From Verrucomicrobiota bacterium (GTDB lineage Bacteria; Verrucomicrobiota; Verrucomicrobiia; Limisphaerales; CANJSG01): DNA of 64,000 nt. The stretch is taken from positions 1,884-65,883 of the forward strand of contig JAYTUE010000082.1 in the NCBI GenBank assembly GCA_043744715.1, read 5' to 3'. Both the position numbers and the translations under genes were made by a program. Position 1 is the first letter of the stretch, and every line of letters starts with the position of its first letter. Positions 28,251-59,880 of the stretch are shown piece by piece. The notes under the pieces are model-generated. The model was not told the DNA's origin. It did not search any database and was given only the letters and a program-made list of their open reading frames with translations.

Positions 28251-28324
28251 GCGGGTGTAGCTCAATGGTAGAGCGCTAGTCTTCCAAACTAGTTACGAGG
28301 GTTCGATTCCCTTCACCCGCTCCA
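28251..28324 (+). tRNA. tRNA-Gly (anticodon UCC), with encoded CCA
   Basis: Hand-folded cloverleaf: acceptor GCGGGTG/CACCCGC, D arm GCTC-AATGGTA-GAGC, anticodon arm CTAGT-CTTCCAA-ACTAG (UCC at positions 34-36), T arm GAGGG-TTCGATT-CCCTT, then discriminator T plus CCA. Confidence 0.9.
28295..28324 (+). repeat. attL core (3-prime 30 nt of tRNA-Gly)
   Basis: ACGAGGGTTCGATTCCCTTCACCCGCTCCA, identical to 59698..59727. Confidence 0.9.
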
Positions 28325-28383
28325 CTCTTCCCAAACTGCTTCTGCTGAGGGCTTCCCGCGATTCCGACTTCAGACCTACACAC

Positions 28384-33233: not shown

Positions 33234-33258
33234 AGAAATTTCGGGAACACGAAGAGGT

Positions 33259-39200: not shown

Positions 39201-39354
39201 GGACGGATTGCCGAGTTTTGCGGAAGGGCTTTGCGATCAAGCGTGCGAGTGCAAGGAAATCACGCTCTCCGCGAAGAAAATTGGCAACTTAGCACTCACT
39301 ATCGAGAAGGGACCATTCAAATATAAATGCAAAATAAATAAGAAAAGCAATTAA
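33259..39354 (+). CDS. RHS/YD-repeat polymorphic toxin with Sec signal peptide and a variable C-terminal domain
   Basis: 2031 aa from MKTILKMVAALFVGLLICAQGAGA. It has dozens of YD repeats (YDALGR, YDAFGR, YDSLGQ, YTYDHAGRL, WDGENRL) and an RHS core end YYGYRYYDSRAGRWINMDPIGE ... NLHLFISNNPIGNTDMDGC, followed by about 165 aa that are Cys-rich and of unknown fold. The track ORF starts earlier, at 33127. Confidence 0.9.
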   Translation: MKTILKMVAALFVGLLICAQGAGASCLSLELEVQLASTNRGKVGFPNFRASESDPITKYYLKKTTQDVLYQNSAWTETIFDCTQNVFLQFDWSETTVQNFNVTNLTISGGVTSGSKSWGYSGNPCTNLPSISCSMTWNTSSNAYVGDGSCLNGWGMIGCSNNSFSVSVTPPSTQVSSWSCSETSGYGTTDTGNRTITATLSEEYTTTRLKSECEGVQYDGKWILANTNAPTASASASYILSTHETALVISKSKWRLKYILPKDVEYDHELTRTETIDGVTTEKKYTVTLKGTGKVAYHPDEDGEELSISGGTSATSRSVSITTVQTPGGTSCSSSGCSSGISAENGSVNIKVGLGKTADGRGNGLLYIEENGYGTQIANPAAFGLFQGMNTTVIRQGTKTIRQVFAPEVLVDIVSNSTSQVTILLYRQPSSGWWNSSSNLYIPSVSASATGVVERLDGPGKLIRLTVTDVGTSTYDYEWVDANGGWSLTTGGGLRKEVKIGTATNLYETILVKNGSGVIEQAETNAYVQLANIGRRLPVRKDVGLMPWTKTTTWDYYTNSTTDGTNYGQLKLKVEHDGSWEHLVYDTNGLLTARYTPFLNSAPTTNASLCRVFEYDYTKLDTNDVSAGQARRIIQKVLGQEISRRYFVDYSTSKWDIACAEPGAAWNSGSNKVTKTVSYVGGPWDGRTWRVERPDGTMTLHAYSTNSSGAWAVDVSTGVPNGSKDAVIDGTKTSTGYDLRGQMIGTTNRDIGSNLILSQQVWSNPDSVGRYQTLTYLDGRTESTAYGCCGIDSTTDKDGVTTSYGYDALKRRTTTIRNGITRTVTYDSDGRVLSQSQTGTNGTTLDLGSSLYNTAGDLIGSYDALGRTNISIEVTNSSGGLIRETTFTDGTTRLEVTARDGSVLSTTGTAEHGVRYDYGVTNDGGIYRLYQSTIRLNTNGTDSAEVVTTFNRCDGGTYKTIHAGAATNTMEFNTLGQMVKSTDPDGVAMLYGYNPLGEQVVSAVDVNRNGVIDTNGTDRVTVMTRSVLTNPESYVVQRTVTQVYSVDSSSASVIATTNETSATGLRSWNRTAAGVSTRVTAYPGSGQRTVTSTAHDGSYSVTFYQDGRMLSMTRYDALGTQLAQNTADYDAFGRAWLSTDSVHGTRTNFFDTVNRVYRTSTAAPASGQSPLNTTNYFDGRDRVFRMVHPDGNSVTNEFFLTGELKKTYGSRTYPVAYTYDHAGRLKTMTTWQSFATSGGAAVTTWNYDGYQGLLTNKQYQGGSGPSYTYTPSGKLKTRTWARGVVTSYGYNNAGDLQSLTYSDGITPAVTNSYNRLGQIVSQTQSLGGTNVVRTTGFSLLALPLTESWTGGPLDGLSVTNGFDNLQRRTTVGLSNYSASVAVYGYDRASRLAGVTNGSAFAAYTYSADRGQWSKLQMGLSGTNRLTTSRVYDKVDRLTWLTNAYASTDVFGFAFNAAGQMTRRDEPDGAYWIYTYDSLGQVTSGKKYWSDSSPVAGQQFEYAFDDIGNRNSSASGGDASGSNLRSTSYSVNLLNQYSSRNNPSPITVIGSAVTNATVTVNLNSTVRKGEYWWGEATATNTYYPARVGITNVAVIKGAGTNGTDLVSTNTGALLWAEASETFTNDLDGNLMADSLWTYTWDGENRLIRMESRSAVPLDFRRRLDMTYDAGSRRIGQTISTWTNNAYASAKTKRFVSDGWNLLAELDVSKTLVQAYVWGTDLSGSMTGAGGVGGLLMVNTGSASHGYAYNSNGDVRSLVSLTDGGQSAAYEYGPFGELIRSSGAMALSNPFRFSTKHHDEESALLYYGYRYYDSRAGRWINMDPIGELAFFLQYARFHNATELLDERPVGLNLHLFISNNPIGNTDMDGCLMTPGGEVGKTKENRRTPPARMELIQVPKCTILFVYGHNYVDDFEKTGLQWIWNIVPVNDNDKSCSYAAVAGCAADRIPNEIPLPGFDYSTYDVAEQRQIPAPVLLRMWTDVRDGLPSFAEGLCDQACECKEITLSAKKIGNLALTIEKGPFKYKCKINKKSN

Positions 39355-39370
39355 TTACATAGGAACAAAA

Positions 39371-40123
39371 ATGAATTTTTTCATTCATCGGTTGCCATTT
39401 TATAACAAGTCTCGCCGCAGAAAGTTGGATGGGTTACTGTGCAGCCTGATACTGATTGTGCTTGCAATTGGATGTTCGACCGAGCCGCTGTGGAAAGGCA
39501 AACGTCTGTCCACTTGGCTTGAGGATTTGGATGACCTTGATTTGAAAAAAACGGTCGCGGCTGAGACTGCGTTAAAACGCATTGGAACAAATGCAATTCC
39601 CTACCTCATGTTAAAGCTAACCACCCCAGAATCATCGGTTTCAGATTGGATCAGAACTGGTGGCCGGCGTGGGGCTGAACATACCGACGTAGTCATGGCC
39701 TTTCGTGTATTGGGAAGTTCTGCAGCCCAAACGTTGCCCTCTCTTGGCTCCCTCCTCACCAACCAGACGAGTATGACCAACCCCGGAGCTGCATATAAAA
39801 TTGCGCAATCTATGGCAGGCATTGGAGAGCAGGCGAAACCGCAGCTTGTCGCAGCATTGAATAGTTCGAGTCCCAGCATTCGTCGAGCAAGCTTGGTGGG
39901 ACTGATTGACCTGGGAAAGGCCGCAAATGATGCAATGCCTACAGTATTGGAACGAGTAACGGATAGCGACGCTGAAACCAGAGGACTAGCGCTTTTTTTC
40001 GTGAGCGACGTAGCTGTCGATGACGAGATGAAGTTGCGCGTTTTTAAGGAGGCTTTACTGGACTCGGATCGCTACGTCCGCTCATTCGCTCAAAGAGAAC
40101 TTCGGAGATTTGAAAGCAAGTAA
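39371..40123 (+). CDS. HEAT/armadillo-repeat lipoprotein (candidate cognate immunity protein)
   Basis: Lipobox LAIGCS and repeated HEAT-like units (SPSIRRASLVGLIDLG, DSDAETRGLALFFV, DSDRYVRSFAQREL). It shares low G+C with the RHS C-terminus and lies directly downstream of it. Confidence 0.6.
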   Translation: MNFFIHRLPFYNKSRRRKLDGLLCSLILIVLAIGCSTEPLWKGKRLSTWLEDLDDLDLKKTVAAETALKRIGTNAIPYLMLKLTTPESSVSDWIRTGGRRGAEHTDVVMAFRVLGSSAAQTLPSLGSLLTNQTSMTNPGAAYKIAQSMAGIGEQAKPQLVAALNSSSPSIRRASLVGLIDLGKAANDAMPTVLERVTDSDAETRGLALFFVSDVAVDDEMKLRVFKEALLDSDRYVRSFAQRELRRFESK

Positions 40124-40144: not shown

Positions 40145-40897
40145 TTACTTTGTTTCGCCCCCCCGTTCTTTCAGACCGAGGAGCTTTGTCTCCAGCTGTC
40201 CGACCGTGCGGCTTGTTTCGACGAGCTGTTGGAATATCTTCTCACGATCCTTTTCCATCCGATCAATTTGCAGGTCTTTTACCCGGTTGGTGATTTCAAG
40301 ATCGCGCACCTCCCTTTTCAGCTCCGCCAGTTCATTTGAATCCGCCTCTTCCCTTCGTTTTGGTTCCGCATCATGCGGAAAGGTGCGGAAGTTTTCCGAA
40401 TCCTGCGGAAGCGGTTCCGGATTGGCTTTGGCGGCCCTGGCCTTCTCCTCGGTGATGGCGGCCTCGACGGACTGGGGGGTGATGAAATAGCGGCGTTCAT
40501 TGGGATCGAAATAGGCTTCGAGCCGGGCGATGCCCTGCCGGTTGGGCTGGCACCAGTTGGTGATGCTGCGTTCCGAACGGGCGACACCGGCGGTCTCGAA
40601 GAGCCGGGCGACATCACGCACGATCAAAGTGCAGTTCTCCCGCCTGACGGAAGGAGTGCGGAATGCTTCCGAAGAGTTCGGAATGGTTCCGAAGACTTCC
40701 GCAACGTGCGGAACCTTGCCGAAGCGTTCCGAACCTTGCGGCACCGTGCGGAGTGCTTCCGCACCATTCGGAAAAGCCGCATTGTCATGCGGAAGATGAT
40801 TCGGGTCGGGTTGTAGCGGGGATGTCTCGAACATGGGGGAAGTGAAGCCGTGGAGCGGGTCGTAAGACCCCGGCATTCCTGCATCCAATTCTAGCAC
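40145..40897 (-). CDS. Hypothetical protein: decapeptide repeats + HTH-like centre + C-terminal coiled coil
   Basis: 250-aa ORF. aa ~35-80 read AEALRTVPQG SERFGKVPHV AEVFGTIPNS SEAFRT; the centre reads IVRDVARLFETAGVARSERSITNW (HTH-like); the C-terminus reads ELAELKREVRDLEITNRVKDLQIDRMEKDREK. Coding status across the repeat block is ambiguous because nearly all frames are open there. Confidence 0.55.
   Translation of the reverse strand: MLELDAGMPGSYDPLHGFTSPMFETSPLQPDPNHLPHDNAAFPNGAEALRTVPQGSERFGKVPHVAEVFGTIPNSSEAFRTPSVRRENCTLIVRDVARLFETAGVARSERSITNWCQPNRQGIARLEAYFDPNERRYFITPQSVEAAITEEKARAAKANPEPLPQDSENFRTFPHDAEPKRREEADSNELAELKREVRDLEITNRVKDLQIDRMEKDREKIFQQLVETSRTVGQLETKLLGLKERGGETK
40364..40421. 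repeat. Heptamer array A1: 5 copies in exact 10-bp phase plus 1 copy shifted by 1
   Basis: TTCCGCA, TGCGGAA, TGCGGAA, TTCCGAA and TGCGGAA start at 40364, 40374, 40384, 40394 and 40404. TTCCGGA starts at 40415. Confidence 0.85.
40657..40794. repeat. Heptamer array A2: 12 copies in exact 10-bp phase (plus one straggler)
   Basis: Starts at 40657 + 10n: TGCGGAA TTCCGAA TTCGGAA TTCCGAA TTCCGCA TGCGGAA TGCCGAA TTCCGAA TGCGGCA TGCGGAG TTCCGCA TTCGGAA. An extra TGCGGAA lies at 40788. Confidence 0.9.
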
Positions 40898-40982: not shown

Positions 40983-41300
40983 ATGACAAACATTCCACAC
41001 ACAGACAGCGACATCCGCATTCCACACGCTCTCTGGCTCGCGTCAGGACTCTCGCTGCGGGAAAAGGCTCTATTGGCAAAGATCGCCGAAGCCGATGTGA
41101 ACGAAGGCTACCGTGTTCTCAACCGCGACATCATAGGGTTTCTTGGCGTGCGTGAACGGCACGTCCAATCCTGCGTCGCCGCGCTTCTGGACAAGGGCTA
41201 CATCACGCTACGGATCAACTCCGACATGAGCCGCGTGATCAAACCGACGGCGAAGCTGGCGAAGATTCTGACGCGACGGGTCAAGCGCAGCGGTCGCTGA
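40983..41300 (+). CDS. Small winged-helix DNA-binding protein
   Basis: 105 aa; LSLREKALLAKIAE ... FLGVRERHVQSCVAALLDKGYITL has a MarR/Rep-like wHTH pattern. Confidence 0.6.
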   Translation: MTNIPHTDSDIRIPHALWLASGLSLREKALLAKIAEADVNEGYRVLNRDIIGFLGVRERHVQSCVAALLDKGYITLRINSDMSRVIKPTAKLAKILTRRVKRSGR

Positions 41301-41348: not shown

Positions 41349-41744
41349 ATGCAATCCATCAACCAACTCATCAAGGAAAAGAACATCGAACTCGCGACCC
41401 TTGATCCGGTGGTGGCGGCAGGCTTCACGCAGGTGCCCAACTTCATCCTCCGCAATCCCGACATTTCAGCCGGAGCCAAGGTGGTGTATGCCATGTTCCT
41501 TTCCTATGCCTGGCACAACGACTCGTGTTTTCCGGGACAGGACAGGTTGGCGGAGGACATGGGGTTGACCCGTCCGCGTGTGACGCAGTTGATCTCCGAG
41601 CTGGAATCCGCTGGGTTCATCACCATCCAACGACGTGGGCAGGGGAAGACCAACCTCTACAAGGTTCATTTCCAGGTGCAGGCGAAGCCGCAGAGTTTTC
41701 CACAGCAAACATCCAGAGGTAAACTGGCTTACCTCAAGAAGTAA
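41349..41744 (+). CDS. Helix-turn-helix (HTH_36/replication-initiator-like) protein
   Basis: 131 aa; FTQVPNFILRNPDISAGAKVVYAMFLSYAWHNDSCFPGQDRLAEDMGLTRPRVTQLISELESAGFI is typical of plasmid/ICE Rep-organiser-type HTH proteins. Confidence 0.65.
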   Translation: MQSINQLIKEKNIELATLDPVVAAGFTQVPNFILRNPDISAGAKVVYAMFLSYAWHNDSCFPGQDRLAEDMGLTRPRVTQLISELESAGFITIQRRGQGKTNLYKVHFQVQAKPQSFPQQTSRGKLAYLKK

Positions 41745-42124
41745 GCCCATTGACCACTTGTGGTAAACCGGCTGACTTCATTCTATATAAGAATACCCAG
41801 ATCAAGAACACGAAGAGAAAGAATAGAGGAGTTTCTTAATGAAACTGTGGATAACCCGAATTCGGGTGCGGGGAATACCCCTCCAACCTTGGAAAGGTGG
41901 AAAAACGCGAAACAGCACACGGATCAGGACGTGTCAAGACCCTCCAACCTTACAGGTTCTTCGAGCCCAAACCCACCAACGCACCCGCATCTTGGGCGAA
42001 GCCATGAAAACTGGCTGCGCCAGTCGGGAAACAGATATTGTGCGACTCGGATTGTGGGGCAGGGTTGAGCCCTTTTCCCTGCCCCAAACAAAAATCCCGA
42101 CACAGTTTTGTGTGCGGGATTCTT

Positions 42125-42339
42125 TTAGTTTCGGAGCAGTTCGATCAGGTCGTCCGTGGTCAACCTGGCTTGTCGCATGATCAGCTTGAGCGTATAGGAT
42201 CAGGCAGATCCTTGCCGTGCAGCGCCACCAAGGTCGTCAGGCGCTTGATGGGATGCCAGAAGATGACATGGCTTCCGTCCTGTCTCTTCTCCACGAAACC
42301 GGCCCGTTTGAGCGCGGCCACCATCTTGGAAGGACGCAC
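42125..42339 (-). pseudogene. hicA: HicA-family mRNA interferase toxin, apparently frameshifted
   Basis: VRPSKMVAALKRAGFVEKRQDGSHVIFWHP ... LHGKDLP is HicA-like. The frame stops at 42181 (..DPIRSS-stop), while the -1 frame continues YTLKLIMRQARLTTDDLIELLRN-stop (to 42125), which is the conserved HicA C-terminus. Confidence 0.6.
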
Positions 42340-42353
42340 CGTCGGCAGGCGGG

Positions 42354-42596
42354 TCAAACGAGTATCGGCCGTCGCACCTGAACACCGACTATGACCGGTT
42401 GGCTGTGCTCTTCCGGGATCGGTTCGCCGAGTTCCTGCAATGTCTCCACCCACAGTTCGATGGCCTCCTTCGCCATGGCCACCGCGTGCTCGAAGCTCGT
42501 GCCCCAAGTCACACAGCCAGGCAAAGCCGGCACGCTCACGGCAAAACCACCCTCTTCCAGAGGGGCCAGCTCAATTGTGTAAGTCATGGTCTGCAT
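42354..42596 (-). CDS. hicB: HicB-family antitoxin (UPF0150)
   Basis: 80 aa; YTIELAPLEEGGFAVSVPALPGCVTWGTSFEHAVAMAKEAIELWVE. Its stop overlaps a possible TTG start of hicA. Confidence 0.8.
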   Translation of the reverse strand: MQTMTYTIELAPLEEGGFAVSVPALPGCVTWGTSFEHAVAMAKEAIELWVETLQELGEPIPEEHSQPVIVGVQVRRPILV

Positions 42597-42640
42597 AGAC
42601 TTACATCATAGCACATGCGTGTTCTTAACGTCAAAGATGG

Positions 42641-42880
42641 CTAGGCCGCCCGCACCAGGATGGGAAAGGTGAAGGTCTTGTGCCCCAGCTTTTCCACAGG
42701 CCACGGTTCCCCTCTTTGTTGCAGAGATGCCAGGTGGAACTCGATGGCCGCTCGAACTGAAGCAGTCGCTTCCTCAAGGGTGTCTCCACGGGAAAAGCAG
42801 CCCGGCAAGGCCGGGACTTCCGCCCAATACCCTCCTTCGGCGGCGGGCTGGATCTTGACGGTGTAGTGCGTGATTTCCAT
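42641..42880 (-). CDS. hicB: Second HicB-family antitoxin paralogue
   Basis: 79 aa; YTVKIQPAAEGGYWAEVPALPGCFSRGDTLEEATASVRAAIEFHL. It lies in tandem with the first hicB. Confidence 0.8.
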   Translation of the reverse strand: MEITHYTVKIQPAAEGGYWAEVPALPGCFSRGDTLEEATASVRAAIEFHLASLQQRGEPWPVEKLGHKTFTFPILVRAA

Positions 42881-43551
42881 CCCTCCATTCTACCATGTCC
42901 GACAGTTTTCCCGCAAACGACCGCCCTTGTCCTTTACGCCGACCCCGACATCACGGGCGACATACATGGTATGTAGGGGCTGGACGCCCTTCACTGGTTC
43001 ATTCCATGGCTCTACCGAGCCACGACTTGTTCCCCAACGTGTCGTCGGCTAGCGCCCGACTTTGCGCTTTTTCCATCCGGCTAGTCGGGTATCAGGTTTT
43101 CCTATCGGTCACCCTCACCAAAAACCGCAAAGTCGGCCGCCTCGGGACTATCGTCCCTTAGCCGTCGACACGTTGGGGGGTGCTGTCGGTGCTGGCGCAC
43201 GGCCACTAGGAGCTACCGCTCCACCTGAACATCGTGCTGGCGCGACGGTTCGCGTGGAGACGCGGAGGGACGAATCCCCGCCTGCCGGTCAATGGACAAA
43301 AGCGCCGCCGCGAATGCGGCTTGGAACAGCACGCGGCGAATGCCGCGCACCGTTGCCGCTGTGGTATGATTACCTTTCCTCCCACGACTCCCAGCAATCC
43401 TGTCTCCCTATGAGTCTACCGGCAGGTGGTGCTGAGACCAGGCGCTATTACCTCGATGGCTCGTGCCCAAAACGGTTGCCGTCGTTCCGAAATGCGGTCC
43501 ACACAACCGGAACTGCATTCGGTTTCAGGAGTGGCGGCTGGTCTGGGCACC

Positions 43552-44832
43552 ATGAACGACCCGCTTATCCACATCGGCCAATTCGACCACCGGGGGCAAC
43601 CATTGCCCTTCGGGCTTTCAGCCGTGGACGCCCGCCAACACCTCTACCTCATCGGCAAGACCGGTTCCGGGAAAACCACCCTGCTCCGCAACCTGCTGGT
43701 GCAACACATCGCCGCTGGACACGGCGTCGGGCTGATTGATCCCCACGGCGATCTCGCCGAGGAATTGTTGAATCACATCCCGCCTTCGCGGGCGGATCAT
43801 CTGGTCTACTTCAATCCGGGCGACCTGGAGTTCCCCATCGGTTTGAACCTCTTGGCCAATGTGCCGGTGGATGACCGGCACTTGGTCGCCTCCGGCATCG
43901 TAGGAGCCTTCAAGGGGATTTGGAGGGACTCATGGGGGCCTCGGCTCGAATACATCCTCTACAACGCCATAGCGGCCCTCCTGGACTGCCAGAACACCAC
44001 TTTGTTGGGCGTGAACCGGCTCCTGACGGACTCGCGCTACCGCGCTTGGGTCGTGCGCCAGATCAAAGACCCGTTCATCCGGGATTTCTGGGAGAACGAA
44101 TACGAGGGCTACGATCCACGGTTCCAACGCGAGGCCATCGCCCCCATCCAGAACAAGCTGGGCCAGTTCCTCCAGAGTCCCGTGATTAGAAACATCCTCG
44201 GGCAGGTGCGGACAAAGGTGAGCATCCCCTTCGTCATGGACACCTCCCGCATCTTCATCGCCAACCTGTCCAAAGGACGCTTGGGTCATGACAAGGCCAA
44301 CCTGCTTGGTTCCCTGCTGACGACGCAGTTCCAGTTGGCGGCCATGGCACGGGGTTCGATCCCGGAGGCGGAACGCCGTGATTTCCACCTCTTCATCGAT
44401 GAGTTCCAGAATTTCAGCACGGACGCCTTCGCCTCGATCCTCGCCGAAGCTCGCAAATACCGGCTCTGCCTCACGCTCTCCCACCAATACATCGACCAGC
44501 TTTCCCTGCCGGTGCGTCAGGCGGTCTTTGGCAACGTGGGCACGCTCGTCTCCTTCCGCGTGGGTCACACGGATGCCGAGGTGCTGCATGATGAATTCGG
44601 CCACGAATTCGCCGAGCAACAGCTCGTCGATCTCGACAAGTTCGAGATGGTGGTGAAGCTCTTGGAGAACGGAACCAACCGGACGCCTTTCCGGGCGATG
44701 AGTCTCGCGCCTTTGGAGAACCGGGTGGGACGCAGGGACAAGTTAATCAAGCTGTCACGGGAGCGGTTCGCGACGCCGAGGAAAGAGGTGGAGGGGAGGT
44801 TGGAGAGATGGATGGATTCTGATTGCGGCTAA
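43552..44832 (+). CDS. TraD/VirD4-like (T4SS-DNA_transf/DUF87) P-loop ATPase without TM domain
   Basis: Walker A GKTGSGKT, Walker B FHLFIDEFQNF and a TraG-D_C-like LTLSHQYIDQLSLPVRQAVFGNVGTLVSFRV. The start is placed at MNDPLIH (43552). It is a paralogue of the core of 55374..58445. Confidence 0.8.
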   Translation: MNDPLIHIGQFDHRGQPLPFGLSAVDARQHLYLIGKTGSGKTTLLRNLLVQHIAAGHGVGLIDPHGDLAEELLNHIPPSRADHLVYFNPGDLEFPIGLNLLANVPVDDRHLVASGIVGAFKGIWRDSWGPRLEYILYNAIAALLDCQNTTLLGVNRLLTDSRYRAWVVRQIKDPFIRDFWENEYEGYDPRFQREAIAPIQNKLGQFLQSPVIRNILGQVRTKVSIPFVMDTSRIFIANLSKGRLGHDKANLLGSLLTTQFQLAAMARGSIPEAERRDFHLFIDEFQNFSTDAFASILAEARKYRLCLTLSHQYIDQLSLPVRQAVFGNVGTLVSFRVGHTDAEVLHDEFGHEFAEQQLVDLDKFEMVVKLLENGTNRTPFRAMSLAPLENRVGRRDKLIKLSRERFATPRKEVEGRLERWMDSDCG

Positions 44833-52294: not shown

Positions 52295-54310
52295 ATGTTA
52301 GAAACGAAGACTACACTGGTGGCAGACATACTGCATGGAGTCATCGCGTTGTCTCCGCTGGAGAAGCGACTTGTTGCCACTCGGGCATTCAATCGTCTCC
52401 ACAACGTTCTCCAGAACTCGACCGTATATTTCACTTACCCGTCAAACCGTACCTCGCGCCTGAGCCATTCGCTTGGTGTTGCGAAGATCGCTGGAGAATT
52501 ATTCCGGCAGGGGTTGCTCAATGCCACAGTGGACGATCGCCGAGCATTTCTGAAGATGGCACACACCAGTATCGGAGAATTCCAGAGTGAAACCGCTTTT
52601 AGGGAAGATACAGCGCGTCACACTTCAGGTCACACACATATAGGAGATTTGCTAAGGTCAAAGACTATTGCCATCCCATGCGATTTCTATTCATCGATGC
52701 TCCTTGCCGGACTCGAGCCTGACGAAATTCGCACCTACCTCGTTTTGTTGCAATCTGTCCGTTATGTGGCCCTTCTTCATGATCTTGGACATCCACCATT
52801 CTCACATGTGACAGAAGCGGCCCTGCAAAGCGGTTTCGAGCGATTACAAGGCGACGACGTTATTCCAACTTCTCGCCGCGGAATTCTTAAACAAGAATTG
52901 ACTGAATTTCTTTCTGGACCAGATGATGCCGCGTTTCATGAGCTGCTCGGCCTTGAACTCACAAAAACATTGTTAGACACAGTTTTGGCGGACTTGAAGA
53001 AGGAAAGTCTTACCGACTATCAACTTTTTGATGTTCTCGTAATAAAACACGCAACGTTAAAGATTTTACAGAACAAGCCGTTTTTTTGTATCCTTCACCA
53101 AATCGTTGACTCGGATCTTGATGCCGATCGTTTGGACTACGTTCAACGGGATCTGATCAGTTCGGGAATGTCGCGCGAACCGTTCCGTCCCGACCGATTG
53201 ATTCAATCCTTTACATTGATTGCAGATGCTGCGGAGCAGGCGTATCCATTTCTTTTTCTCCCTTCAATACGAGCTCTCAATAATTTGGAGGACTTTTTTC
53301 ATCAGAGATTTCAACTTTATAAGTATGTGATCTTTCATCATAGAGTGGTCAAATTTGATGGATTGCTTCAGCGATGTATTGAAGAAATTAGTGATCAAGC
53401 GCTCATTGAAACCCCGCTTGTTGAGGCTGCCAGTGGCGTTGAATCTGCTCCCAATGAAAATCCTCTCCTTCTGCCAACCGGCATTGCGGGCATCTGGAGT
53501 CTTTTTAGCCGGGCTGTTTCCACAAACCCGCTACAAAGAGAAAGTTTTTATGTTCAATGGGATGACGCTTGGCTTTTAGGAGCACTCCGCAATAAGTATT
53601 TCACAATGAAGCGGTTCCGGAGTCTGCAAAATCCGCCCGTTACGGAAAAAACCGTATTAGAGGTTCGCCTTGAAGAAATGCTGTCAAATCAGAAGCATCA
53701 TCGAGCGCTATTTAAGCGTGGGGAATGTTTTTATGCTGTTGACGATGCATTTTGGAGAGCGATTCCAGACAACACCTCATTTACGTCGTTTGGGAAATCG
53801 TGGGAGCCAAATCCAACTGGGCATTTTGCATTTGAGAAAGGTGGGAAAAAAATTCAAGATTATGTCTCCCAACTTAGGAGCGCCTCAGGCGATGGTGAAG
53901 CTCTGACGGAACTTGTGGAGCAATATGGGTATGTGCTGTCTTTGATTTGCGCCTTAGTCCATCGTATTGCCGGGCGAAAAGTTCCATTGAGTTTTCTATT
54001 TAAGGCAGCCCTGGAGTTCAAAGAAATTCACTTTAGAGACAACATTTTGGATGTAATTGTTATTCCTAAAACAATTAAAGCAGGGGTTCAACGCAACTTT
54101 AGGTTGGCCGCTAATAATATGGAGATTGTGCCGATCGGCCGCGTGTCGCCGATCGCGGGGGAATTGGAGCGGGCATCATTGTTGTTTCCTCCTTTTTTTG
54201 TATACATGCTTTCCGCAAATGAACCTTCGGATGGGGAACGCCTGAAATGGCGCGCTGAATTTGGCCAACTGCTTTGGAAGCACTTCCAGACGTGGGCTCT
54301 TATCGATTAG
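52295..54310 (+). CDS. SAMHD1/dGTPase-like HD-domain phosphohydrolase with a ~340-aa C-terminal extension
   Basis: 671 aa with DILHGVIALSP ... FNRLHNVLQ ... RLSHSLGV, LLHDLGHPPFSH and DADRLDYVQRD, which are the dNTP triphosphohydrolase HD signatures. It sits in a markedly AT-richer cassette. Confidence 0.8.
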   Translation: MLETKTTLVADILHGVIALSPLEKRLVATRAFNRLHNVLQNSTVYFTYPSNRTSRLSHSLGVAKIAGELFRQGLLNATVDDRRAFLKMAHTSIGEFQSETAFREDTARHTSGHTHIGDLLRSKTIAIPCDFYSSMLLAGLEPDEIRTYLVLLQSVRYVALLHDLGHPPFSHVTEAALQSGFERLQGDDVIPTSRRGILKQELTEFLSGPDDAAFHELLGLELTKTLLDTVLADLKKESLTDYQLFDVLVIKHATLKILQNKPFFCILHQIVDSDLDADRLDYVQRDLISSGMSREPFRPDRLIQSFTLIADAAEQAYPFLFLPSIRALNNLEDFFHQRFQLYKYVIFHHRVVKFDGLLQRCIEEISDQALIETPLVEAASGVESAPNENPLLLPTGIAGIWSLFSRAVSTNPLQRESFYVQWDDAWLLGALRNKYFTMKRFRSLQNPPVTEKTVLEVRLEEMLSNQKHHRALFKRGECFYAVDDAFWRAIPDNTSFTSFGKSWEPNPTGHFAFEKGGKKIQDYVSQLRSASGDGEALTELVEQYGYVLSLICALVHRIAGRKVPLSFLFKAALEFKEIHFRDNILDVIVIPKTIKAGVQRNFRLAANNMEIVPIGRVSPIAGELERASLLFPPFFVYMLSANEPSDGERLKWRAEFGQLLWKHFQTWALID

Positions 54311-54676: not shown

Positions 54677-55396
54677 ATGTTCAACTTCTTCAAAAAGAAG
54701 ACGGAGGTATTAAATCACTGGATCGCATTTGCTGATGGGTTCCAGACTTCCCCGTTGGAGTTCTACGCGGCTTTGGAAAAGGAACTGGCAGACCGGCAGG
54801 TCCCGAGCATGGAGATGAAGCGCATCGAGCTGCCCGAAGGCGGGCTGCTTTCCGAGAAGCGCGTCTACCTGCGGATGCTGCGGGAAAGACTGGTGTTCGA
54901 CGTGTGCGCCGCTCCGTTTGGGAGCGGCTTTTTCTTTTCCTGCCGCACTTCGGAAATCCCCGTTGTCCTCAACCTTCTGGAGCTGGCCCTGGTGTTCATG
55001 GCGGGCGCGTTGTCCTTTGTGGCGTTCACCTACTTCCTTGGCTTCATCCTGGGAACCTTGAGCTTGTTGGCGCTGCTCGTCGCCGCCGTCTACGTGCTCC
55101 GCAACGCCGTGGCCATGGGATTGCAGGATCTGGACAAGACCCTTCAGCAATCGCCCTTCGTGGGCACCGTCTACGAAGCCTGGTTCCGCAAGGAGACCTA
55201 CCACCGCATCGATTCGCGGCTGTGCTATCTGGAGGTGGTTCCCTCATTGGTGAAGAAGCTGGCCGAAGACACGGCCGCCACCAAGGGCATCAAACTCGTG
55301 CGCCAGTTCCAACTGGCTCCCGTCTTGGGCGAACTCTACCAGCCGGCGGCACCAACCTTGAACCCTGTCCCCTATGCCCCACCGGTCGGTGCATGA
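54677..55396 (+). CDS. Hypothetical membrane protein (2 TM helices)
   Basis: 239 aa with central helices VVLNLLELALVFMAGALSFVAFTYFLGFILGTLSLLALLVAAVYVL. Its 3-prime end overlaps the next ORF by 23 nt. Confidence 0.65.
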   Translation: MFNFFKKKTEVLNHWIAFADGFQTSPLEFYAALEKELADRQVPSMEMKRIELPEGGLLSEKRVYLRMLRERLVFDVCAAPFGSGFFFSCRTSEIPVVLNLLELALVFMAGALSFVAFTYFLGFILGTLSLLALLVAAVYVLRNAVAMGLQDLDKTLQQSPFVGTVYEAWFRKETYHRIDSRLCYLEVVPSLVKKLAEDTAATKGIKLVRQFQLAPVLGELYQPAAPTLNPVPYAPPVGA

Positions 55397-58300
55397 GCAG
55401 GTGTCCGAGCAGTTCGCGGAGCTTGAGCGTCGTGGACGTGGGTGGCAGGTGTTTCCCGAGCCGGTCACGCCAGAACCGCCCTTTGTCCCCTTCACCGGCT
55501 ACACCCTGGCTTCCGTGCTGGACGACGGACGCGTGCCGACCGTGGGCAGTTCCCTGCTTTCCGGCGTCCTCCGTTGGCTGAACAAGGAACCCCAGGTTCC
55601 ATCGAATGAGGACGAAGCCGAGGAACCAGTCCCGACTCCGCTCGTGCGGGAGGATCTGGTCGAACTTCAACTCTCGCTGCCCGATAGCCTGAAGGTGTCT
55701 CCCGAGGTGTTCGCCGGCTTCCTTTCCCAACTCACACTCTGCACCGAGCCCGTGAGCTTCGAGCTGTTCGGCACCACTGAAAAGGTTGTCGCCCAGTTTT
55801 CCGCCAGCCATTCGGACGCACCCGGTGTGCGTCGGCAGCTCTCCGCCCATTTCCCCGAGGTGGTGTTCCTGCCGACGAAGGACACACTTTTTCCACTGGC
55901 TGAACCTGACGCCCACCATGCGGTGGTCGAGTTCGGTCTGGAGAAGGAGTTCCTGCTGCCTTTGGCCTCCGGAGGACTTGATCCCTTTGTGGCTCTGGTG
56001 GCTGCCATGGGCGAACTGCGCGAGGGCGACTGCGCCCTCTACCAGGTGCTCTTTCAGCCCTGCCGCCATCCTTGGCGGGAAAACATCCTCCGCTCCGTGA
56101 CCGACGGCGAAGGCGGAGCCCTCTTCGTCAATCGTCCCGATCTCGTGATGCTGGCCAAAGGCAAGGTGTCCCAGCCGCTCCATGCCGTGGTGGTGCGGAT
56201 CACCTCGAAAAGCGGCAGCTTCGAGGAAGCTTGGGAGATTCTGCGGGGGTTGGCGAGAGCCTTGCGGGTGTTCTCGAACCCGGAGGGCAACGAACTCGTT
56301 CCGCTGGCCAATGACGACTATCCGGCCGAGGCCCATTTGGAAGATGTGCTCCGTCGCCAGACCCGACGCAGCGGGATGCTGCTCAATGCCGATGAACTGG
56401 CCGGCTTCGTCCATCTGCCTTCGCCCGCAGTCCGCACGGCCAGGTTTCAGCGGCAGTCCAAAACCAGCAAAGCCCCTCCAAAATCTCTCTCCCCTGTGGG
56501 GGTTCTATTGGGAACCAATCTCCACGCGGGCAAAACCACTCCCGTCCGTCTCTCCGCCGAACAACGGACGCGCCACATGCACGTCATCGGGGCTTCGGGC
56601 ACGGGCAAGAGCACCTTCCTCTTCAACCTGATCCAGCAGGACATCCTCGCCGGTGAAGGGCTCGCCGTCCTGGACCCGCACGGCGACCTGATCGACCGGA
56701 TCTTGGAAGTCATTCCCGAGCACCGGATCAAGGACGTCATCCTTGTCGATCCCTCCGACGAAACCGCCTCCATCGGGTTCAACATCCTGTCGGCGCACAG
56801 CGACTTGGAGAAGACGCTGCTCGCCTCCGATCTCGTGTCCGTCTTCGCGCGGCTTTCCACCAGCTGGGGCGACCAGATGGAGGGCGTGTTCCGCAACGCC
56901 ATCCTCGCGTTCCTGGAAAGCAGCCAGGGCGGCACGCTCTCCGATCTCCGCCGCTTCCTGCTCGATCCCAAATACCGCGAGCGGTTCCTCGCCACCGTGC
57001 AGGACCCGGACATCCAGTTCTACTGGCGGAAGGGGTTCGCCCAGCTCACGGGCAACAAGTCCATCGGCCCCGTGCTGACGCGCCTGGAAATCTTCCTCGC
57101 CCCCAAACCGATCCGCTACATGGTGGCGCAGCCGGTCAACCGGCTGGACTTCACGGGCATCCTCGACTCCGGAAAGATCCTCCTCGCCAAACTGTCGCAA
57201 GGAGCCATCGGCAAGGAAAACTCCCATCTGCTGGGTTCCCTCTTCATGGCCAAGCTGCAACAGGCGGTCATGGCCCGGCAGCGGCAGGAGGCGGCCGTCC
57301 GCCAGGACTTCTGGCTCTACTGCGACGAGTTCCACAACTTCATCACCCCGAGCATGGCCGAAATCCTGAGCGGGGCGCGCAAGTATCGGCTGGGACTCGT
57401 CCTCGCCCACCAGGAGCTGCGGCAGTTGGAACGCGACCGCGAGGTGGCCAGCGCCGTCCTCTCCAATCCCTATACCCGCGTGGTCTTCCGCGTGGGCGAC
57501 GATGATGCACGGAAGCTGGAGAACGGGTTCTCCTCGTTCGAGGCCCACGATCTCCAGAACCTCGCCACGGGCGAAGCCGTGGTGCGGATCGAACGGAGCG
57601 ACGGTGATTTCAACCTGCGGGTTTCCCAGCCGGAAAAGGTCGATCCTGCTTTGGCAGCAGCACGGTTGAAGGAAGTGACGGAAGCCTCCCGTCGCACCTA
57701 CGCCACGCCACGGGCGGAGATCGAGGCCGCGTTACGGCAGCAGTTCCCACCAGAAGAACCCCCGCAGTCTGCGGAAGCACGGAAGGATGCGGAAGAGTTC
57801 CGTGCCGTGCCGAAGGCTTCCGAACGCATCGGAAAAGTTCCGAAGATGGCGGAAAGCAGCGGCATCGTTCCGCAGGTTGCCGAAGCGCCGAAGACGTCTG
57901 AACCCGGCGCTGACTCAAAAGCAGCGCTTGAGACCGAACATAGCGCCATCAAGCGACAGATCACGCGGCACGCCGAAGCGTTGGGCTACCATGTCGCGGT
58001 CGAAGAATTTGTGGCGGACACCCTCGGGCGGGCCGATCTGGTTCTTCGTCGCGGGAAACGGGTCGTCGCCGTCGAGGTGTCCGTGACGACCAATGCCGGG
58101 AATGAAATCGGCAACCTCGTCAAATGCCTGTCGGGCGACTTCTCGCAGGTTGTCCTCGTGGCGACCAGCGCCCGGAAGCTCGCCAACATCGAGCGGCGGT
58201 TCCGCAGCACCGCCCCGGCGGAAGGCGCTGCGGAAGTAGTTTTTTGCCTGCCCGCAGACCTCCTTGAACAGCTTCGGACATGGGCGGCGGGCGACCCGCG

Positions 58301-58445
58301 CGATTTGGCGACCGAAAAGGCATTTCCACGCAAACAGCCGATCAATCTGGTGGCACCACGGATGACCGACGCCGAGCGGACCGAGCGCGAAGGGGCGATG
58401 CTGGCGCGTTTACGGGAGGCGATGAAAACGCCGCCGCCGACATAG
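55374..58445 (+). CDS. Large TraD/DUF87-like P-loop ATPase fused to a decapeptide-repeat linker and a PD-(D/E)xK-like C-terminal domain
   Basis: 1023 aa. aa 1-400 have no recognised family. Walker A GASGTGKST (56589..56615), Walker B FWLYCDEFHNF and a TraG-D_C-like LVLAHQELRQLERDREVASAVLSNPYTRVVFRV. Repeats AEEFRAVPKA SERIGKVPKM AESSGIVPQV AEAP. Then LGYHVAVEEFVADTLGRADLVLRRGKRVVAVEVSVT (nuclease-like D ... E-x-S/K core; tentative). Confidence 0.8.
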   Translation: MPHRSVHEQVSEQFAELERRGRGWQVFPEPVTPEPPFVPFTGYTLASVLDDGRVPTVGSSLLSGVLRWLNKEPQVPSNEDEAEEPVPTPLVREDLVELQLSLPDSLKVSPEVFAGFLSQLTLCTEPVSFELFGTTEKVVAQFSASHSDAPGVRRQLSAHFPEVVFLPTKDTLFPLAEPDAHHAVVEFGLEKEFLLPLASGGLDPFVALVAAMGELREGDCALYQVLFQPCRHPWRENILRSVTDGEGGALFVNRPDLVMLAKGKVSQPLHAVVVRITSKSGSFEEAWEILRGLARALRVFSNPEGNELVPLANDDYPAEAHLEDVLRRQTRRSGMLLNADELAGFVHLPSPAVRTARFQRQSKTSKAPPKSLSPVGVLLGTNLHAGKTTPVRLSAEQRTRHMHVIGASGTGKSTFLFNLIQQDILAGEGLAVLDPHGDLIDRILEVIPEHRIKDVILVDPSDETASIGFNILSAHSDLEKTLLASDLVSVFARLSTSWGDQMEGVFRNAILAFLESSQGGTLSDLRRFLLDPKYRERFLATVQDPDIQFYWRKGFAQLTGNKSIGPVLTRLEIFLAPKPIRYMVAQPVNRLDFTGILDSGKILLAKLSQGAIGKENSHLLGSLFMAKLQQAVMARQRQEAAVRQDFWLYCDEFHNFITPSMAEILSGARKYRLGLVLAHQELRQLERDREVASAVLSNPYTRVVFRVGDDDARKLENGFSSFEAHDLQNLATGEAVVRIERSDGDFNLRVSQPEKVDPALAAARLKEVTEASRRTYATPRAEIEAALRQQFPPEEPPQSAEARKDAEEFRAVPKASERIGKVPKMAESSGIVPQVAEAPKTSEPGADSKAALETEHSAIKRQITRHAEALGYHVAVEEFVADTLGRADLVLRRGKRVVAVEVSVTTNAGNEIGNLVKCLSGDFSQVVLVATSARKLANIERRFRSTAPAEGAAEVVFCLPADLLEQLRTWAAGDPRDLATEKAFPRKQPINLVAPRMTDAERTEREGAMLARLREAMKTPPPT
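57770..57895. repeat. Heptamer array B: 10 copies in exact 10-bp phase plus out-of-phase flanking copies
   Basis: Starts at 57788 + 10n: TGCGGAA TTCCGTG TGCCGAA TTCCGAA ATCGGAA TTCCGAA GGCGGAA AGCGGCA TTCCGCA TGCCGAA. Extra copies lie at 57770 (TGCGGAA) and ~57888 (CCGAA). Confidence 0.9.
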
Positions 58446-58466: not shown

Positions 58467-59600
58467 CTATTTCGCGCCGAACAGCGGCATCGTGGTGACG
58501 GCACTCCGCAGGGTGGACACTTCCAGATGGGTGTATCGCTTGTTCATCTCCTTGGAGGAATGCCCCGTCAGTTTCATCCTCAGTTCGTCCGAAACTCCGG
58601 CGTTGGCGAGGATCGAGTTGAAGCTGTGGCGGAGCGAGTGGAACGTCCGTTGGGTGAACTTGCGCGTGCCCTTTCCTTCGATCACACCCGGATCGATGCC
58701 GGCCCCCACCACGATCCGTTTGAAGCTCTCCGAGAGCCCGTGTTTTCCACCCGGCCCCTTTGTCGCCAGCTTGGGGCAAAGGAATCCGGCGGTGCCAAAA
58801 GTCTTCAGGTAGTCCAGATGTTCAAGGATGTGGAAATGCATCGGGATGATGACTTTTTTACCCGTCTTTTTCTGGAGATAGACGATGACCCCTTCCGCCG
58901 GAAGGACGTTCTCCCATTGCATCTGGACGCAGTCGCCCAACCTCGCGCCGAGGAAATAGCCCAGCAGGATCAGGGTTTGCCATTCCAACGACGGCGCGGC
59001 CCCGATGAGCTTCTGGACCTCTTCCTGCGTAAAGATGCCGCGTTCCGAGCTTTCATCCTTCGGCAGCTGCACCGCGACCACCGGGTTCTTGAGGATGATG
59101 CCGTAAAGCTCGGCCCGCCGAAACGCGCTCTTCAGCGTCTTCACGTCGACGATGGCGGTCTTCGGCGCGGCTCCGGAGTTCAGCCGCCAGTTAAGGAATC
59201 CTTCCACTTCGGCGGGTGTCACCGACGTCATGGGTTTCTTCTCCCGTGGCCCCAAGTGGGCCAGGAAGAGGCGGACCGAATTCCCGTAACGCACATGCGT
59301 CCCGGTTGCGCGTCTGGCCTTCACCCCATCCAGCCAGCCGTTCAGATAGTCGGCGACCGAGGGAACCGCCAGACTGTCGCCGTTCACTTTCTCCGAGACG
59401 TCGTTGAGCACCTTCCGCAGCTGCGCGGTCGTCAAGGAACCGGCGCGGGCCTGCTGCTCCACCCGCTCCAGTTCCACCGCCACCCGCATCGCTTGATTCC
59501 GGTCGGTGGTCTTGGCCGATCGTTTCAACTGGCGTCCGTTGCGGTCGGTGAAGCACGCGATCCAGTAGCGGGATTCGTCCCGGCGAATGACGGTTGCCAT
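58467..59600 (-). CDS. Tyrosine-type site-specific integrase
   Basis: 377 aa with an N-terminal SAM-like/arm-binding region and a catalytic region with LGARLGD, HSLRHSF and GHSSKEMNKRYTH (R..HxxR..Y). Its 5-prime end lies 98 bp from attR. Confidence 0.9.
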   Translation of the reverse strand: MATVIRRDESRYWIACFTDRNGRQLKRSAKTTDRNQAMRVAVELERVEQQARAGSLTTAQLRKVLNDVSEKVNGDSLAVPSVADYLNGWLDGVKARRATGTHVRYGNSVRLFLAHLGPREKKPMTSVTPAEVEGFLNWRLNSGAAPKTAIVDVKTLKSAFRRAELYGIILKNPVVAVQLPKDESSERGIFTQEEVQKLIGAAPSLEWQTLILLGYFLGARLGDCVQMQWENVLPAEGVIVYLQKKTGKKVIIPMHFHILEHLDYLKTFGTAGFLCPKLATKGPGGKHGLSESFKRIVVGAGIDPGVIEGKGTRKFTQRTFHSLRHSFNSILANAGVSDELRMKLTGHSSKEMNKRYTHLEVSTLRSAVTTMPLFGAK

Positions 59601-59697: not shown

Positions 59698-59727
59698 ACG
59701 AGGGTTCGATTCCCTTCACCCGCTCCA
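59698..59727 (+). repeat. attR core (displaced copy of the tRNA-Gly 3-prime end)
   Basis: Identical 30-mer to 28295..28324. The upstream sequence does not continue the tRNA. Confidence 0.9.
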
Positions 59728-59880
59728 ATCCAACTCCCACGCGACCCCCTGTCCTGAGGCTCGGATCGGCTCGTCCTGACAGCTTCCTCCTCTTGTCCCT
59801 AAACCGGATTCCCTTTCAAGCCGTCATCTGGCTACTGCCGCGTGACCACGTTCATCCCAAAGCCTGAAACCACCCGCATT

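Follow-up and report, generated by a model that had tools for sequence, protein, structure and literature searches.

Plasmid centromeres such as parC of R1 (bound by ParR), parH of TP228 (bound by ParG), the heptads bound by the omega protein of pSM19035 and tubC (bound by TubR) consist of short, regularly spaced sites to which a small dimeric protein binds cooperatively, and such centromeres often double as an autoregulatory operator. In bacteriophage λ, the O protein binds ori inside gene O, in its linker-coding part, and in Bacillus subtilis the ram sites of RacA are 14-bp inverted repeats scattered over the origin region. Here we describe arrays of a palindromic heptamer, repeated at a pitch of 10 bp, that lie inside a gene of a mobile island of a Verrucomicrobiota bacterium. 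The gene (hereafter the array gene) encodes an uncharacterised protein of 229 amino acids (aa), and the island is contained in a stretch of 64,000 nucleotides (nt) of contig JAYTUE010000082.1 that we refer to as the window. Comparison with homologous genes strongly supports the view that the arrays are under selection on their nucleotides, not on the peptide that they encode.

The proteins that most resemble the product of the array gene in fold are DNA-coating proteins of the MerR-like winged-helix class. RacA, a kinetochore-like anchor that combines a winged helix, a disordered linker and a coiled coil, coats a GC-rich centromere and anchors it by way of the coiled coil (PMC4914108). A RacA-DNA complex (5i44) is the top structural match of the array protein, with which RacA shares its domain layout; RacA differs in being chromosomal and sporulation-specific, in having no detectable sequence similarity to the array protein and in that its sites are not 10-bp-phased arrays inside its own gene. 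BldC of Streptomyces forms cooperative head-to-tail multimers on variable numbers of direct repeats, with one AATTXXXX(C) element per protomer (PMC5859096), and the winged-helix excision factors of integrative elements (RdfS type) also oligomerise on DNA (PMC11963761). BldC, λ Xis and RdfS belong to the same fold class as the array protein. BldC and Xis place one protomer on each short repeat, accept variable repeat numbers and build cooperative filaments that distort the DNA (PMC5859096, PMC11963761), whereas binding of the arrays described here is a prediction. BldC, moreover, reads directional direct repeats in promoters and not a GC-centred palindrome inside coding DNA; BldC and Xis are without a coiled coil, which the array protein probably has, and RdfS is without a consensus motif.

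Repeated protein-binding sites in linker-coding DNA have been described for origins of the RepA_N type. pSK41 has four Rep boxes within rep, the gene of the initiator itself; they occupy the stretch coding for a linker that the protein can do without and are adjoined by an unwinding region (PMC5703833). The arrays that we describe resemble such origins, and λ ori, in being placed in linker-coding DNA and in being adjoined by a Rep-like gene of the HTH_36 family, but they comprise up to 14 heptamers per block, in two blocks that flank the coding sequence of a MerR-type domain. The clt loci of Streptomyces are short direct repeats that mark a mobile element for the FtsK-like motor TraB (PMC4447253), and an ATPase resembling coupling proteins, FtsK and HerA is part of the same backbone as the array gene; clt differs from the arrays in motif, pitch and genomic placement, and it is read by the C terminus of the translocase, whereas Pfam and NCBIfam scans report no reader domain in the ATPases of the island. 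The arrays differ from plasmid centromeres in that they are intragenic, in that no ParA, ParM or TubZ partner was found among the island open reading frames (ORFs) that were scanned, and in that a MerR-type winged helix, probably joined to a coiled coil, takes the place of a ribbon-helix-helix protein as candidate binder. We class the arrays with the cis-acting repeat arrays found in linker-coding DNA, the reader proposed here being an architectural MerR-like winged helix. No description of the motif, the arrangement or the protein family was found in the libraries searched, and a search of the literature for the heptamer strings returned primers and unrelated matches only.

Results

The main array (40657..40794, no strand assigned) consists of twelve heptamers at an exact 10-bp pitch (40657-40773) and an extra copy, TGCGGAA, at 40788, 21 bp beyond the array. 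The second block (40364..40421, no strand assigned) has five units, all at 40364 + 10n (40364-40410), followed 11 bp beyond by TTCCGGA at 40415, which has one mismatch to the consensus. Tabulation of the decamers bears out both series of positions as they had been given in an initial annotation of this DNA. The consensus proposed there, T-K-C-S-G-M-A, holds for 11 of the 12 heptamers of the main block and fails for TGCGGAG at 40747, which misses the last base. The heptamer can be described as a palindromic site, TTCSGAA, that is relaxed to T-K-C-S-G-M-A in GC-rich hosts. The helically phased, regular spacing of short repeats that is a feature of centromeres is present here, in 12 + 5 units at exact 10-bp pitch.

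Arrangements of this kind are not expected by chance. Three consecutive heptamers in phase occur 10 times in the window, each time inside the two blocks, and runs of three in-phase heptamers are absent from 100 dinucleotide-preserving shuffles. Single heptamers number 93 in the window (52 ± 7 expected), about 25 of which lie in the arrays, leaving the rest near background. The basic repeat period is 10 nt, no multiple of 3, and the spectral check that had been proposed agrees with this: in the Fourier spectrum of 40657-40776, periods 10 and 5 have a power of 7.0 and 7.7, respectively, and period 3 one of 0.69. The GC content across and beside the arrays is 0.57-0.64. Five of the six reading frames are open over 40663-40799, matching the earlier claim of at least five, and the minus-strand ORF does contain the decapeptide repeats ascribed to it. 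The perfect 17-bp palindromes reported between neighbouring units, on the other hand, are 7-bp complementary arms around a non-symmetric spacer and carry no extra signal. Across homologues we counted 86 complementary neighbour pairs versus 80.7 ± 6.5 in shuffled arrays, and the hypothesis of hairpins or 17-bp palindromes was rejected.

We fetched 68 genome loci that encode homologues of the array protein (36-61% protein identity), mostly from metagenome-assembled genomes of Verrucomicrobiota. In about 58 of the 68 the gene opens with an array of 6-14 heptamers that share one 10-bp phase. These arrays begin 20-60 nt after the ATG and stop exactly at the start of the folded domain; a second block is found in many homologues, distant ones included. 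For the analysis of selection we used 255 repeat units from 123 distinct genes, the units being defined by the peptide alone and the DNA being ignored; the units are not phylogenetically independent and formal P-values are inflated in consequence, but the size of the effect does not hinge on these. Synonymous positions inside the heptamers are about 98% invariant. Position 3 of the unit is T in 253 of the 255 units even though the codon that it ends spans 13 amino acids and the background frequency of T at third positions is 15%. A occupies position 9 in 249 units, C position 15 in 252 and G position 27 in 251. Two bases are found at each of two further positions, T or G at position 24 (252 units) and A or C at position 18 (251 units). 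At its centre the heptamer has C or G in 244 units, and the codons GCA, GCT, TCA and TCT are therefore avoided. The three third-codon positions that fall within spacers are unconstrained. Codon choice in the repeats also departs from that elsewhere in the same genes, the ratio of GAA to GAG being 258:11 versus 687:374, that of TTC to TTT 240:8 versus 145:134, and that of GTT plus GTG to the other valine codons 176:3 versus 414:201.

Close relatives give the same picture over a shorter distance. When the window is aligned with the related loci L204 and L205, 2 of 40 fixed heptamer positions are variable, as are 4 of 30 degenerate heptamer positions (always within K, S or M) and 12 of 30 spacer positions; in the folded domain 27 of 77 third positions vary and 6 of 154 first and second positions. 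Spacer nucleotides, two thirds of which are amino-acid-changing, thus evolve at approximately the synonymous rate (12/30 compared with 27/77). L204 has an exact 30-nt insertion that corresponds to three units. Those residues of the decapeptide that vary can be read off the degenerate DNA motif: A or S maps to [GT]C[GC], F-R or F-G to TTC[CG]G, V-P or V-R to T[TG]C[CG]G, and the K, N, Q or H that follows to [AC]AN, and the radical exchanges P/R and R/G are tolerated exactly where the centre of the palindrome can flip. A conserved peptide with free synonymous codons, as expected of a peptide tandem repeat, is not what we find, which contradicts that candidate. Fixed synonymous sites in the heptamers beside varying spacers lend strong support to the proposal that an element at the level of DNA overlies coding sequence, and to the companion claim that the decapeptide is a by-product, the 30-nt common multiple of 10 and 3. 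To judge from these alignments, the decapeptide repeat is best read as the translation of an array of putative binding sites.

Three distant relatives (L201, L202 and L203), whose cores are about 50% identical and whose hosts have a GC content of 57%, 38% and 45%, respectively, extend this conclusion. All three keep the strict heptamer, TTCCGAA or TTCGGAA, in both blocks flanking the core, with 22 copies (across interrupted blocks) in L201, 9 + 6 in L202 and 10 + 11 in L203. Their sites are spaced by 10, 11, 12, 20, 21, 22, 23, 24 or 33 bp, and the decapeptide register is therefore lost while the sites are kept at approximately whole helical turns; L201 has a 63-nt super-repeat, which equals six turns of 10.5 bp. 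In the repeats of L202, from the host with 38% GC, proline is encoded by CCG and serine by TCG or TCC, whereas CCA is used elsewhere. It had been reasoned in the initial annotation that homologues keeping the decapeptide with freely varying codons while losing the 10-bp register would reduce the arrays to a peptide repeat. The reverse is observed: heptamers are kept at synonymous positions, and the distant homologues drop the decapeptide register and retain the heptamers.

The array gene lies on the minus strand. Its frame is open over 40145..40897, as had been noted, up to a GTG at 40897, but the start is more likely the ATG at 40834, which gives a gene at 40145..40834 and a product of 229 aa, as called in public data. 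In an AlphaFold2 (AF2) model built on the family alignment, residues 1-60 are disordered (predicted local distance difference test score, pLDDT, about 40) and correspond to the main array, which encodes residues ~14-60 of this N-terminal tail; residues 61-137 form a confident winged helix; residues 141-160, again disordered (pLDDT about 40), correspond to the second block and link the winged helix to a single long C-terminal helix of residues 162-228, a probable coiled coil. The arrays thus coincide exactly with the two disordered segments of the protein, and the model has the RacA-type layout of winged helix, disordered linker and C-terminal coiled coil. The segment coding for the winged-helix core (40421..40657, minus strand) includes a near-invariant recognition-helix motif, ERS[IV]xNWC, that is co-conserved with the heptamer over a range of 38-66% GC.

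Modelled alone, the core has a pLDDT of 89. The top match of the core in a Foldseek search is the RacA-DNA complex 5i44, with a template modelling (TM) score of 0.51-0.60. The BldC-DNA complexes 6ama and 6amk give TM scores of 0.66-0.69 normalised by target (root-mean-square deviation 2.5 Å), and the next neighbours are BmrR, GlnR and CarH, all of them MerR-type winged helices; the neighbours from the Protein Data Bank (PDB) have probabilities of 0.7-0.8 and TM scores of 0.5-0.69. On this model the core is a MerR-type winged helix, an assignment that holds at the level of fold only, because the E-values are weak and the Pfam models for MerR and HTH_17 give no match. Searches of Pfam, NCBIfam, PHROGs, PADLOC and the sequences of the PDB with the array protein gave no match, and its core has no match among annotated plasmids and phages and no named relative. 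Homologues of the array protein number more than 1000, all unnamed, and a search with the core alone yields 324 clusters at 50% identity. The family is uncharacterised and is carried on mobile islands common in Verrucomicrobiota.

In one lineage (L009 and L025) the recognition helix reads ERSVTKWC in place of ERSI(T/V/I)NWC, and the arrays have decayed to 1-5 perfect heptamers where some 10 are usual. The covariation is not clean, since 10 heptamers are kept in a third gene whose recognition helix also has K there.

A third, looser array, missed in the initial annotation, lies at 57778..57884 within a plus-strand gene (55374..58445) for a 1023-aa coupling-protein-like ATPase that has a C-terminal domain. 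It has 11 units in one 10-bp phase, six of them perfect and five with one or two mismatches; a perfect TGCGGAA at 57770, just upstream, is out of phase. The third array aligns unit for unit and without gaps with the main array, the two being colinear, and encodes AEEFRAVPKA SERIGKVPKM AESSGIVPQV AEAPK, a peptide that falls within the linker joining the ATPase domain to the C-terminal domain. In four homologues of this protein, with 54% (L061), 38% (L025), 60% (P0121) and 35% (P0122) identity, the linker is Pro/Ala-rich and the array is missing, and we therefore regard the third array as lineage-specific.

The island (31.4 kb, ~28.3-59.7 kb) is bounded by a 33-nt direct repeat of the 3' end of tRNA-Gly with one mismatch, the copies being attL (28295..28327, plus strand) and attR (59698-59730), and it ends on the right with a tyrosine integrase gene (58467..59600, minus strand; Pfam Phage_integrase, 9.7e-19). 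Both of the winged-helix genes that had been reported next to the arrays are present, divergent from the array gene. The first (40983..41300, plus strand) encodes a 105-aa protein that is a winged helix by eye, has no family match and has a homologue upstream in about half of the related loci. The second (41349..41744, plus strand) encodes a 131-aa protein to which the earlier designation 'Rep-like' does apply: it matches Pfam HTH_36 (1.3e-11) and a PHROG annotated 'replication initiation protein' (2.6e-17), and its resemblance to phage O-like and DnaD-like initiators is confined to their N-terminal DNA-binding domain. The two proteins have no similarity detectable by BLASTP. Across loci the slot for a small winged-helix gene holds either the HTH_36-like or the 105-aa type, and both together only in the closest relatives. 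An HTH_36 gene also stands next to the array gene in the distant L201 and L203, and no small winged-helix partner gene is seen within about 900 bp of the array on the short, 2-kb contig of L202.

Synteny across the 68 loci defines a backbone in which the array gene is divergent from a small winged-helix gene that is followed downstream by HicAB, a TrwB/HerA-type ATPase of 468 aa and unknown proteins of 206, 525 and 256 aa, the 525-aa protein being without a match. The ATPase (43426..44832, plus strand; 32 of 68 loci) is a soluble, coupling-protein-like P-loop protein of the TrwB/HerA/FtsK type. The match of the coupling-protein-like ATPases of the island to FtsK_SpoIIIE is weak (E = 2e-3), and Pfam and NCBIfam scans of these ATPases report no sequence-reading winged helix. 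Pfam and NCBIfam recognise no relaxase or secretion-channel genes in the island, and scans of the island ORFs with Pfam, NCBIfam and PADLOC reveal no ParA, ParM or TubZ. No AT-rich unwinding region adjoins the arrays, the nearest dip (GC 0.38) being about 950 bp off, at 41750-41850. Within the window, Rfam matches only tRNA.

Three features between the winged-helix genes and the ATPase gene can be noted in their own right. The AT-rich dip at 41750-41850 is sharp (GC 0.38 versus ~0.6 around it) and holds a palindrome-like sequence, TTCTATATAAGAATA; the HTH_36 gene ends shortly before it, and the gap of about 430 bp to which the dip belongs is apparently non-coding. A HicA toxin gene and two tandem HicB-like antitoxin genes (42181-42880, minus strand) follow, and HicA/HicB-like genes are kept in several related loci. 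Just upstream of the 468-aa ATPase gene is a nested inverted repeat of about 150 nt (43032-43178), whose arms measure 20 and 21 nt and show 90-95% complementarity; it has no Rfam match, and its sequence and structure are kept in L204, L003 and L011, with one compensatory pair. We consider it a candidate origin of transfer (oriT), single-strand origin or structured RNA of the backbone, and a better oriT-like candidate than the arrays.

The remainder of the island includes cargo genes, among them one for an RHS toxin, and the cargo is not the same in every island. An anti-phage defence system, IetA (AAA ATPase, 1e-77) and IetS (S8 peptidase, 7e-54), occupies 44829-48312 on the minus strand, and a dGTPase-like HD protein is encoded at 52295..54310; the related island L204 carries BREX genes as cargo instead. 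Beside the array gene, inside the island, are genes for a 2075-aa RHS/YD-repeat protein and then a 250-aa HEAT-repeat protein (33127-40123), the latter possibly being the immunity partner of the former. L205 has a similar RHS gene at the same position beside its array gene.

Discussion

We propose that the arrays act in cis as a docking track to which protein binds cooperatively, the likeliest binder being the product of the gene in which they lie, and we put the probability of this reading at about one half. Several considerations favour the array protein as the binder. No other DNA-binding domain accompanies every array, for the upstream partner belongs to one family in some loci and to another elsewhere and is not seen on the short contig of L202; the ERS[IV]xNWC recognition helix is as invariant as the motif across hosts of 38-66% GC; and the closest folds use multi-site DNA coating. 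The winged helix of the array protein is a better candidate binder than the proteins encoded by the neighbouring genes, among which the Rep-like winged-helix protein is the main rival. The biological role served by such binding may be that of a tether, a centromere-like site, autoregulation or an origin.

If the docking track is read by the protein encoded between the arrays, winged-helix monomers could fill successive sites on one face of the DNA as a cooperative filament, in the manner of BldC, λ Xis and RacA. Arrays might then be paired or bridged through the long C-terminal helix, or this helix might hold island DNA to a partner, for instance the coupling-protein-like ATPase of the backbone. 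Since the bound sites would begin 40 nt into the gene and some 190 bp away from the divergent winged-helix genes, both promoters could be autoregulated as well. We note that because a pitch of 10 is coprime with 3, and because the site is palindromic and stop-free, essentially every frame is open and yields the same pseudo-peptide, [AS]E-x-F[GR]-x-[VIL][PR]-x-x; such an array can therefore occupy a disordered tail, where constraint on the protein sequence is lowest, at little cost to the protein. The combination of 10-bp pitch and palindromic site would thus make for a frame-proof array, in which units could be gained or lost without the introduction of internal stop codons.

A bolder and more tentative form of this proposal, against which we think the odds lie, is that the arrays are a self-referential cis element, the disordered tails of the protein being the translation of the protein's own binding-site array. 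Selection would then act on the DNA track, with one TTCSGAA per helical turn, and the protein would load onto its own gene in cis, possibly during its synthesis. Such loading might mark the island DNA for tethering, for segregation or for hand-over to the coupling-protein-like motor. If it is true that the protein binds its own gene, this would be a compact way of coupling a cis site to its reader, and it would represent a new mode of binding for a MerR-like winged helix, to phased palindromes rather than to direct repeats.

Several points weigh against a docking track for the array protein. Only co-occurrence points to the binder. The pitch is exactly 10.0 bp, not 10.5, and a filament of 12 units must therefore wind around the DNA, or else bend or overtwist it. 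E-values of the fold matches are weak (0.3-1.3), which is common with domains of 60-80 residues, and neither Pfam MerR nor HTH_17 recognises the array protein. Covariation between recognition helix and motif was sought and none of it was informative, since both are nearly invariant. Helical phase between the two blocks of the gene is not conserved, the distances being 198-257 bp with modes at 243 and 237. Every array beside a family member is transcribed as coding sequence, the mRNA of the array folds well (z = -4.5), and a scan of metagenome contigs found no array in clearly non-coding DNA beside a family member, one contig (L084) being ambiguous. The peptide may, in addition, have a secondary role, for example as a short motif held in common with the linker of the 1023-aa ATPase.

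Among the alternatives, the one that survives best is that the arrays are the iteron origin of the excised island, read by the HTH_36 protein or its 105-aa counterpart, although we think this unlikely. In its favour, the 131-aa protein has matches to HTH_36 and to the domain with which O-like and DnaD-like initiators bind origins, at their N terminus, relatives give faint RepA_N matches, a small winged-helix gene lies divergently upstream in most loci, including the distant L201 and L203, and origins within linker-coding DNA are known (PMC5703833). The 131-aa protein, however, is a DNA-binding domain only and is without the helicase-loading part of such initiators. About half of the loci carry the dissimilar 105-aa protein instead, yet the heptamer never changes, and the short contig of L202 shows none of these small genes. 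The sites are of 7 bp on a 10-bp pitch, in contrast to iterons of 17-22 bp, the GC content beside the arrays is 0.57-0.60 with no adjoining AT-rich region (the dip to 0.38 being some 950 bp away), and the known cases have the array in the initiator's own gene and not in that of a neighbour.

The pac sites of phages lie inside small-terminase genes, and by analogy the arrays could be a translocation locus, for transfer or packaging, that is read by the coupling-protein-like ATPases or by way of an adaptor, a possibility to which we attach slightly less weight again. The island holds two ATPases of the TrwB/HerA/FtsK type, one of them in the conserved backbone with the array gene and the other encoded by the gene that contains the third array, and clt loci provide a precedent in which direct 8-bp repeats are bound by a translocase (PMC4447253). 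What counts against such a locus is that Pfam and NCBIfam find no winged-helix reader in the ATPases and no relaxase or secretion-channel genes, that the array in the ATPase gene is missing from its homologues, and that the backbone has a better oriT-like candidate in the conserved inverted repeat at 43032-43178. We note that a translocation locus would overlap with the docking track if the 229-aa protein were the adaptor.

An element acting at the level of RNA, with UUCSGAA hairpins or an RNA-binding factor controlling the translation or stability of the mRNA, appears improbable. It would fit with the fact that the arrays beside family members are all transcribed as coding sequence and with the predicted folding energy of the array RNA (-61.9 kcal/mol, z = -4.5 versus shuffles). 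Neighbouring heptamers are no more complementary than in shuffled arrays, however, and we therefore take the good folding to be a by-product. Furthermore, the degeneracy of the motif has reverse-complement symmetry (the K of position 2 is the counterpart of the M of position 6, with S at the centre), and both orientations, which are one site in duplex DNA but two different words in RNA, occur on one strand, so that the motif fits a duplex-DNA site. The spacings cluster near multiples of the DNA helical repeat, and no Rfam family matches the array. Least probable of all is a plain peptide repeat of low complexity, such as a short linear motif, that owes its regularity to codon bias and homogenisation. 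Most homologues, and a second island protein, do have a recognisable [AS]ExF[GR]x[VIL]P, but T ends one codon in 253 of 255 units although 13 different residues are encoded by it, synonymous positions of the heptamer are fixed where amino-acid-changing positions of the spacer change about as fast as synonymous sites, the sites at which P/R and R/G swaps occur are exactly the degenerate positions of the DNA motif, distant homologues lose the decapeptide and retain the heptamer at spacings of 10, 11, 12, 21, 22 and 23 nt, and homogenisation would have made the spacers uniform too.

The specific functional labels that the initial annotation had attached to the arrays are not supported. A centromere is left without a ParA, ParM or TubZ partner among the island ORFs scanned with Pfam, NCBIfam and PADLOC, an iteron origin without an AT-rich unwinding region adjoining the arrays, and a relaxosome scaffold without a relaxase recognised by Pfam or NCBIfam, the inverted repeat at 43032-43178 being the better oriT-like candidate. 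The arrays present an unusually clean case of coding sequence shaped by a signal at the level of DNA, in a family of more than 1000 genes whose hosts range from 38 to 66% GC. They also call for caution in the annotation of repeats and motifs, since what looks like a 'protein repeat' of a disordered region can result from the translation of an array of binding sites. The motif, the candidate binder and its partners together offer a testable handle on uncharacterised islands of Verrucomicrobiota that carry defence cargo such as IetAS and BREX.

Lastly, we looked for arrays beyond the family. Scanning viral contigs for the array pattern gave 12 matches, mostly perfect 10-mer microsatellites unrelated to the array family. 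Only one of the contigs, classified as viral in IMG/VR (L080, 8265-8353), encodes a helix-turn-helix (HTH) sequence (…ERTVLNYIEAEMFDPMPVKIGKAWHF) and then SESFRILPKPSASFGTV, with similar motif units, which hints at translated TTCSGAA sites next to other, Xis/AlpA-like HTH proteins. In the corresponding scan of metagenome contigs, 62 of 80 loci scored as homologues of the array gene, a figure that is inflated because about 20 of these loci are a 10-bp satellite from termite gut, TTCCGAACTC, that by tblastn matches only the repeat peptide; the other 18 of the 80 are simple microsatellites and similar repeats. The ambiguous contig L084 (48% GC) has blocks of 7 and 6 mixed heptamers (1649-1979) immediately 5' of an ORF for a 46-aa HTH sequence (…GLSERSILNYIKAKE…) in another frame; next to them is a 355-aa ORF that is ferrochelatase-like by eye. 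L084 may represent either a frameshifted, degenerate member of the family or an array that is not translated with the domain. The satellite TTCCGAACTC and its variants are present in hundreds of copies on low-GC contigs, apparently from termite-gut metagenomes (L085, L092, L098, L111, L112, L116, L119, L120, L125, L127, L148, L153 and others), and are probably eukaryotic satellite DNA that is unrelated to the island and matches the array pattern by chance.

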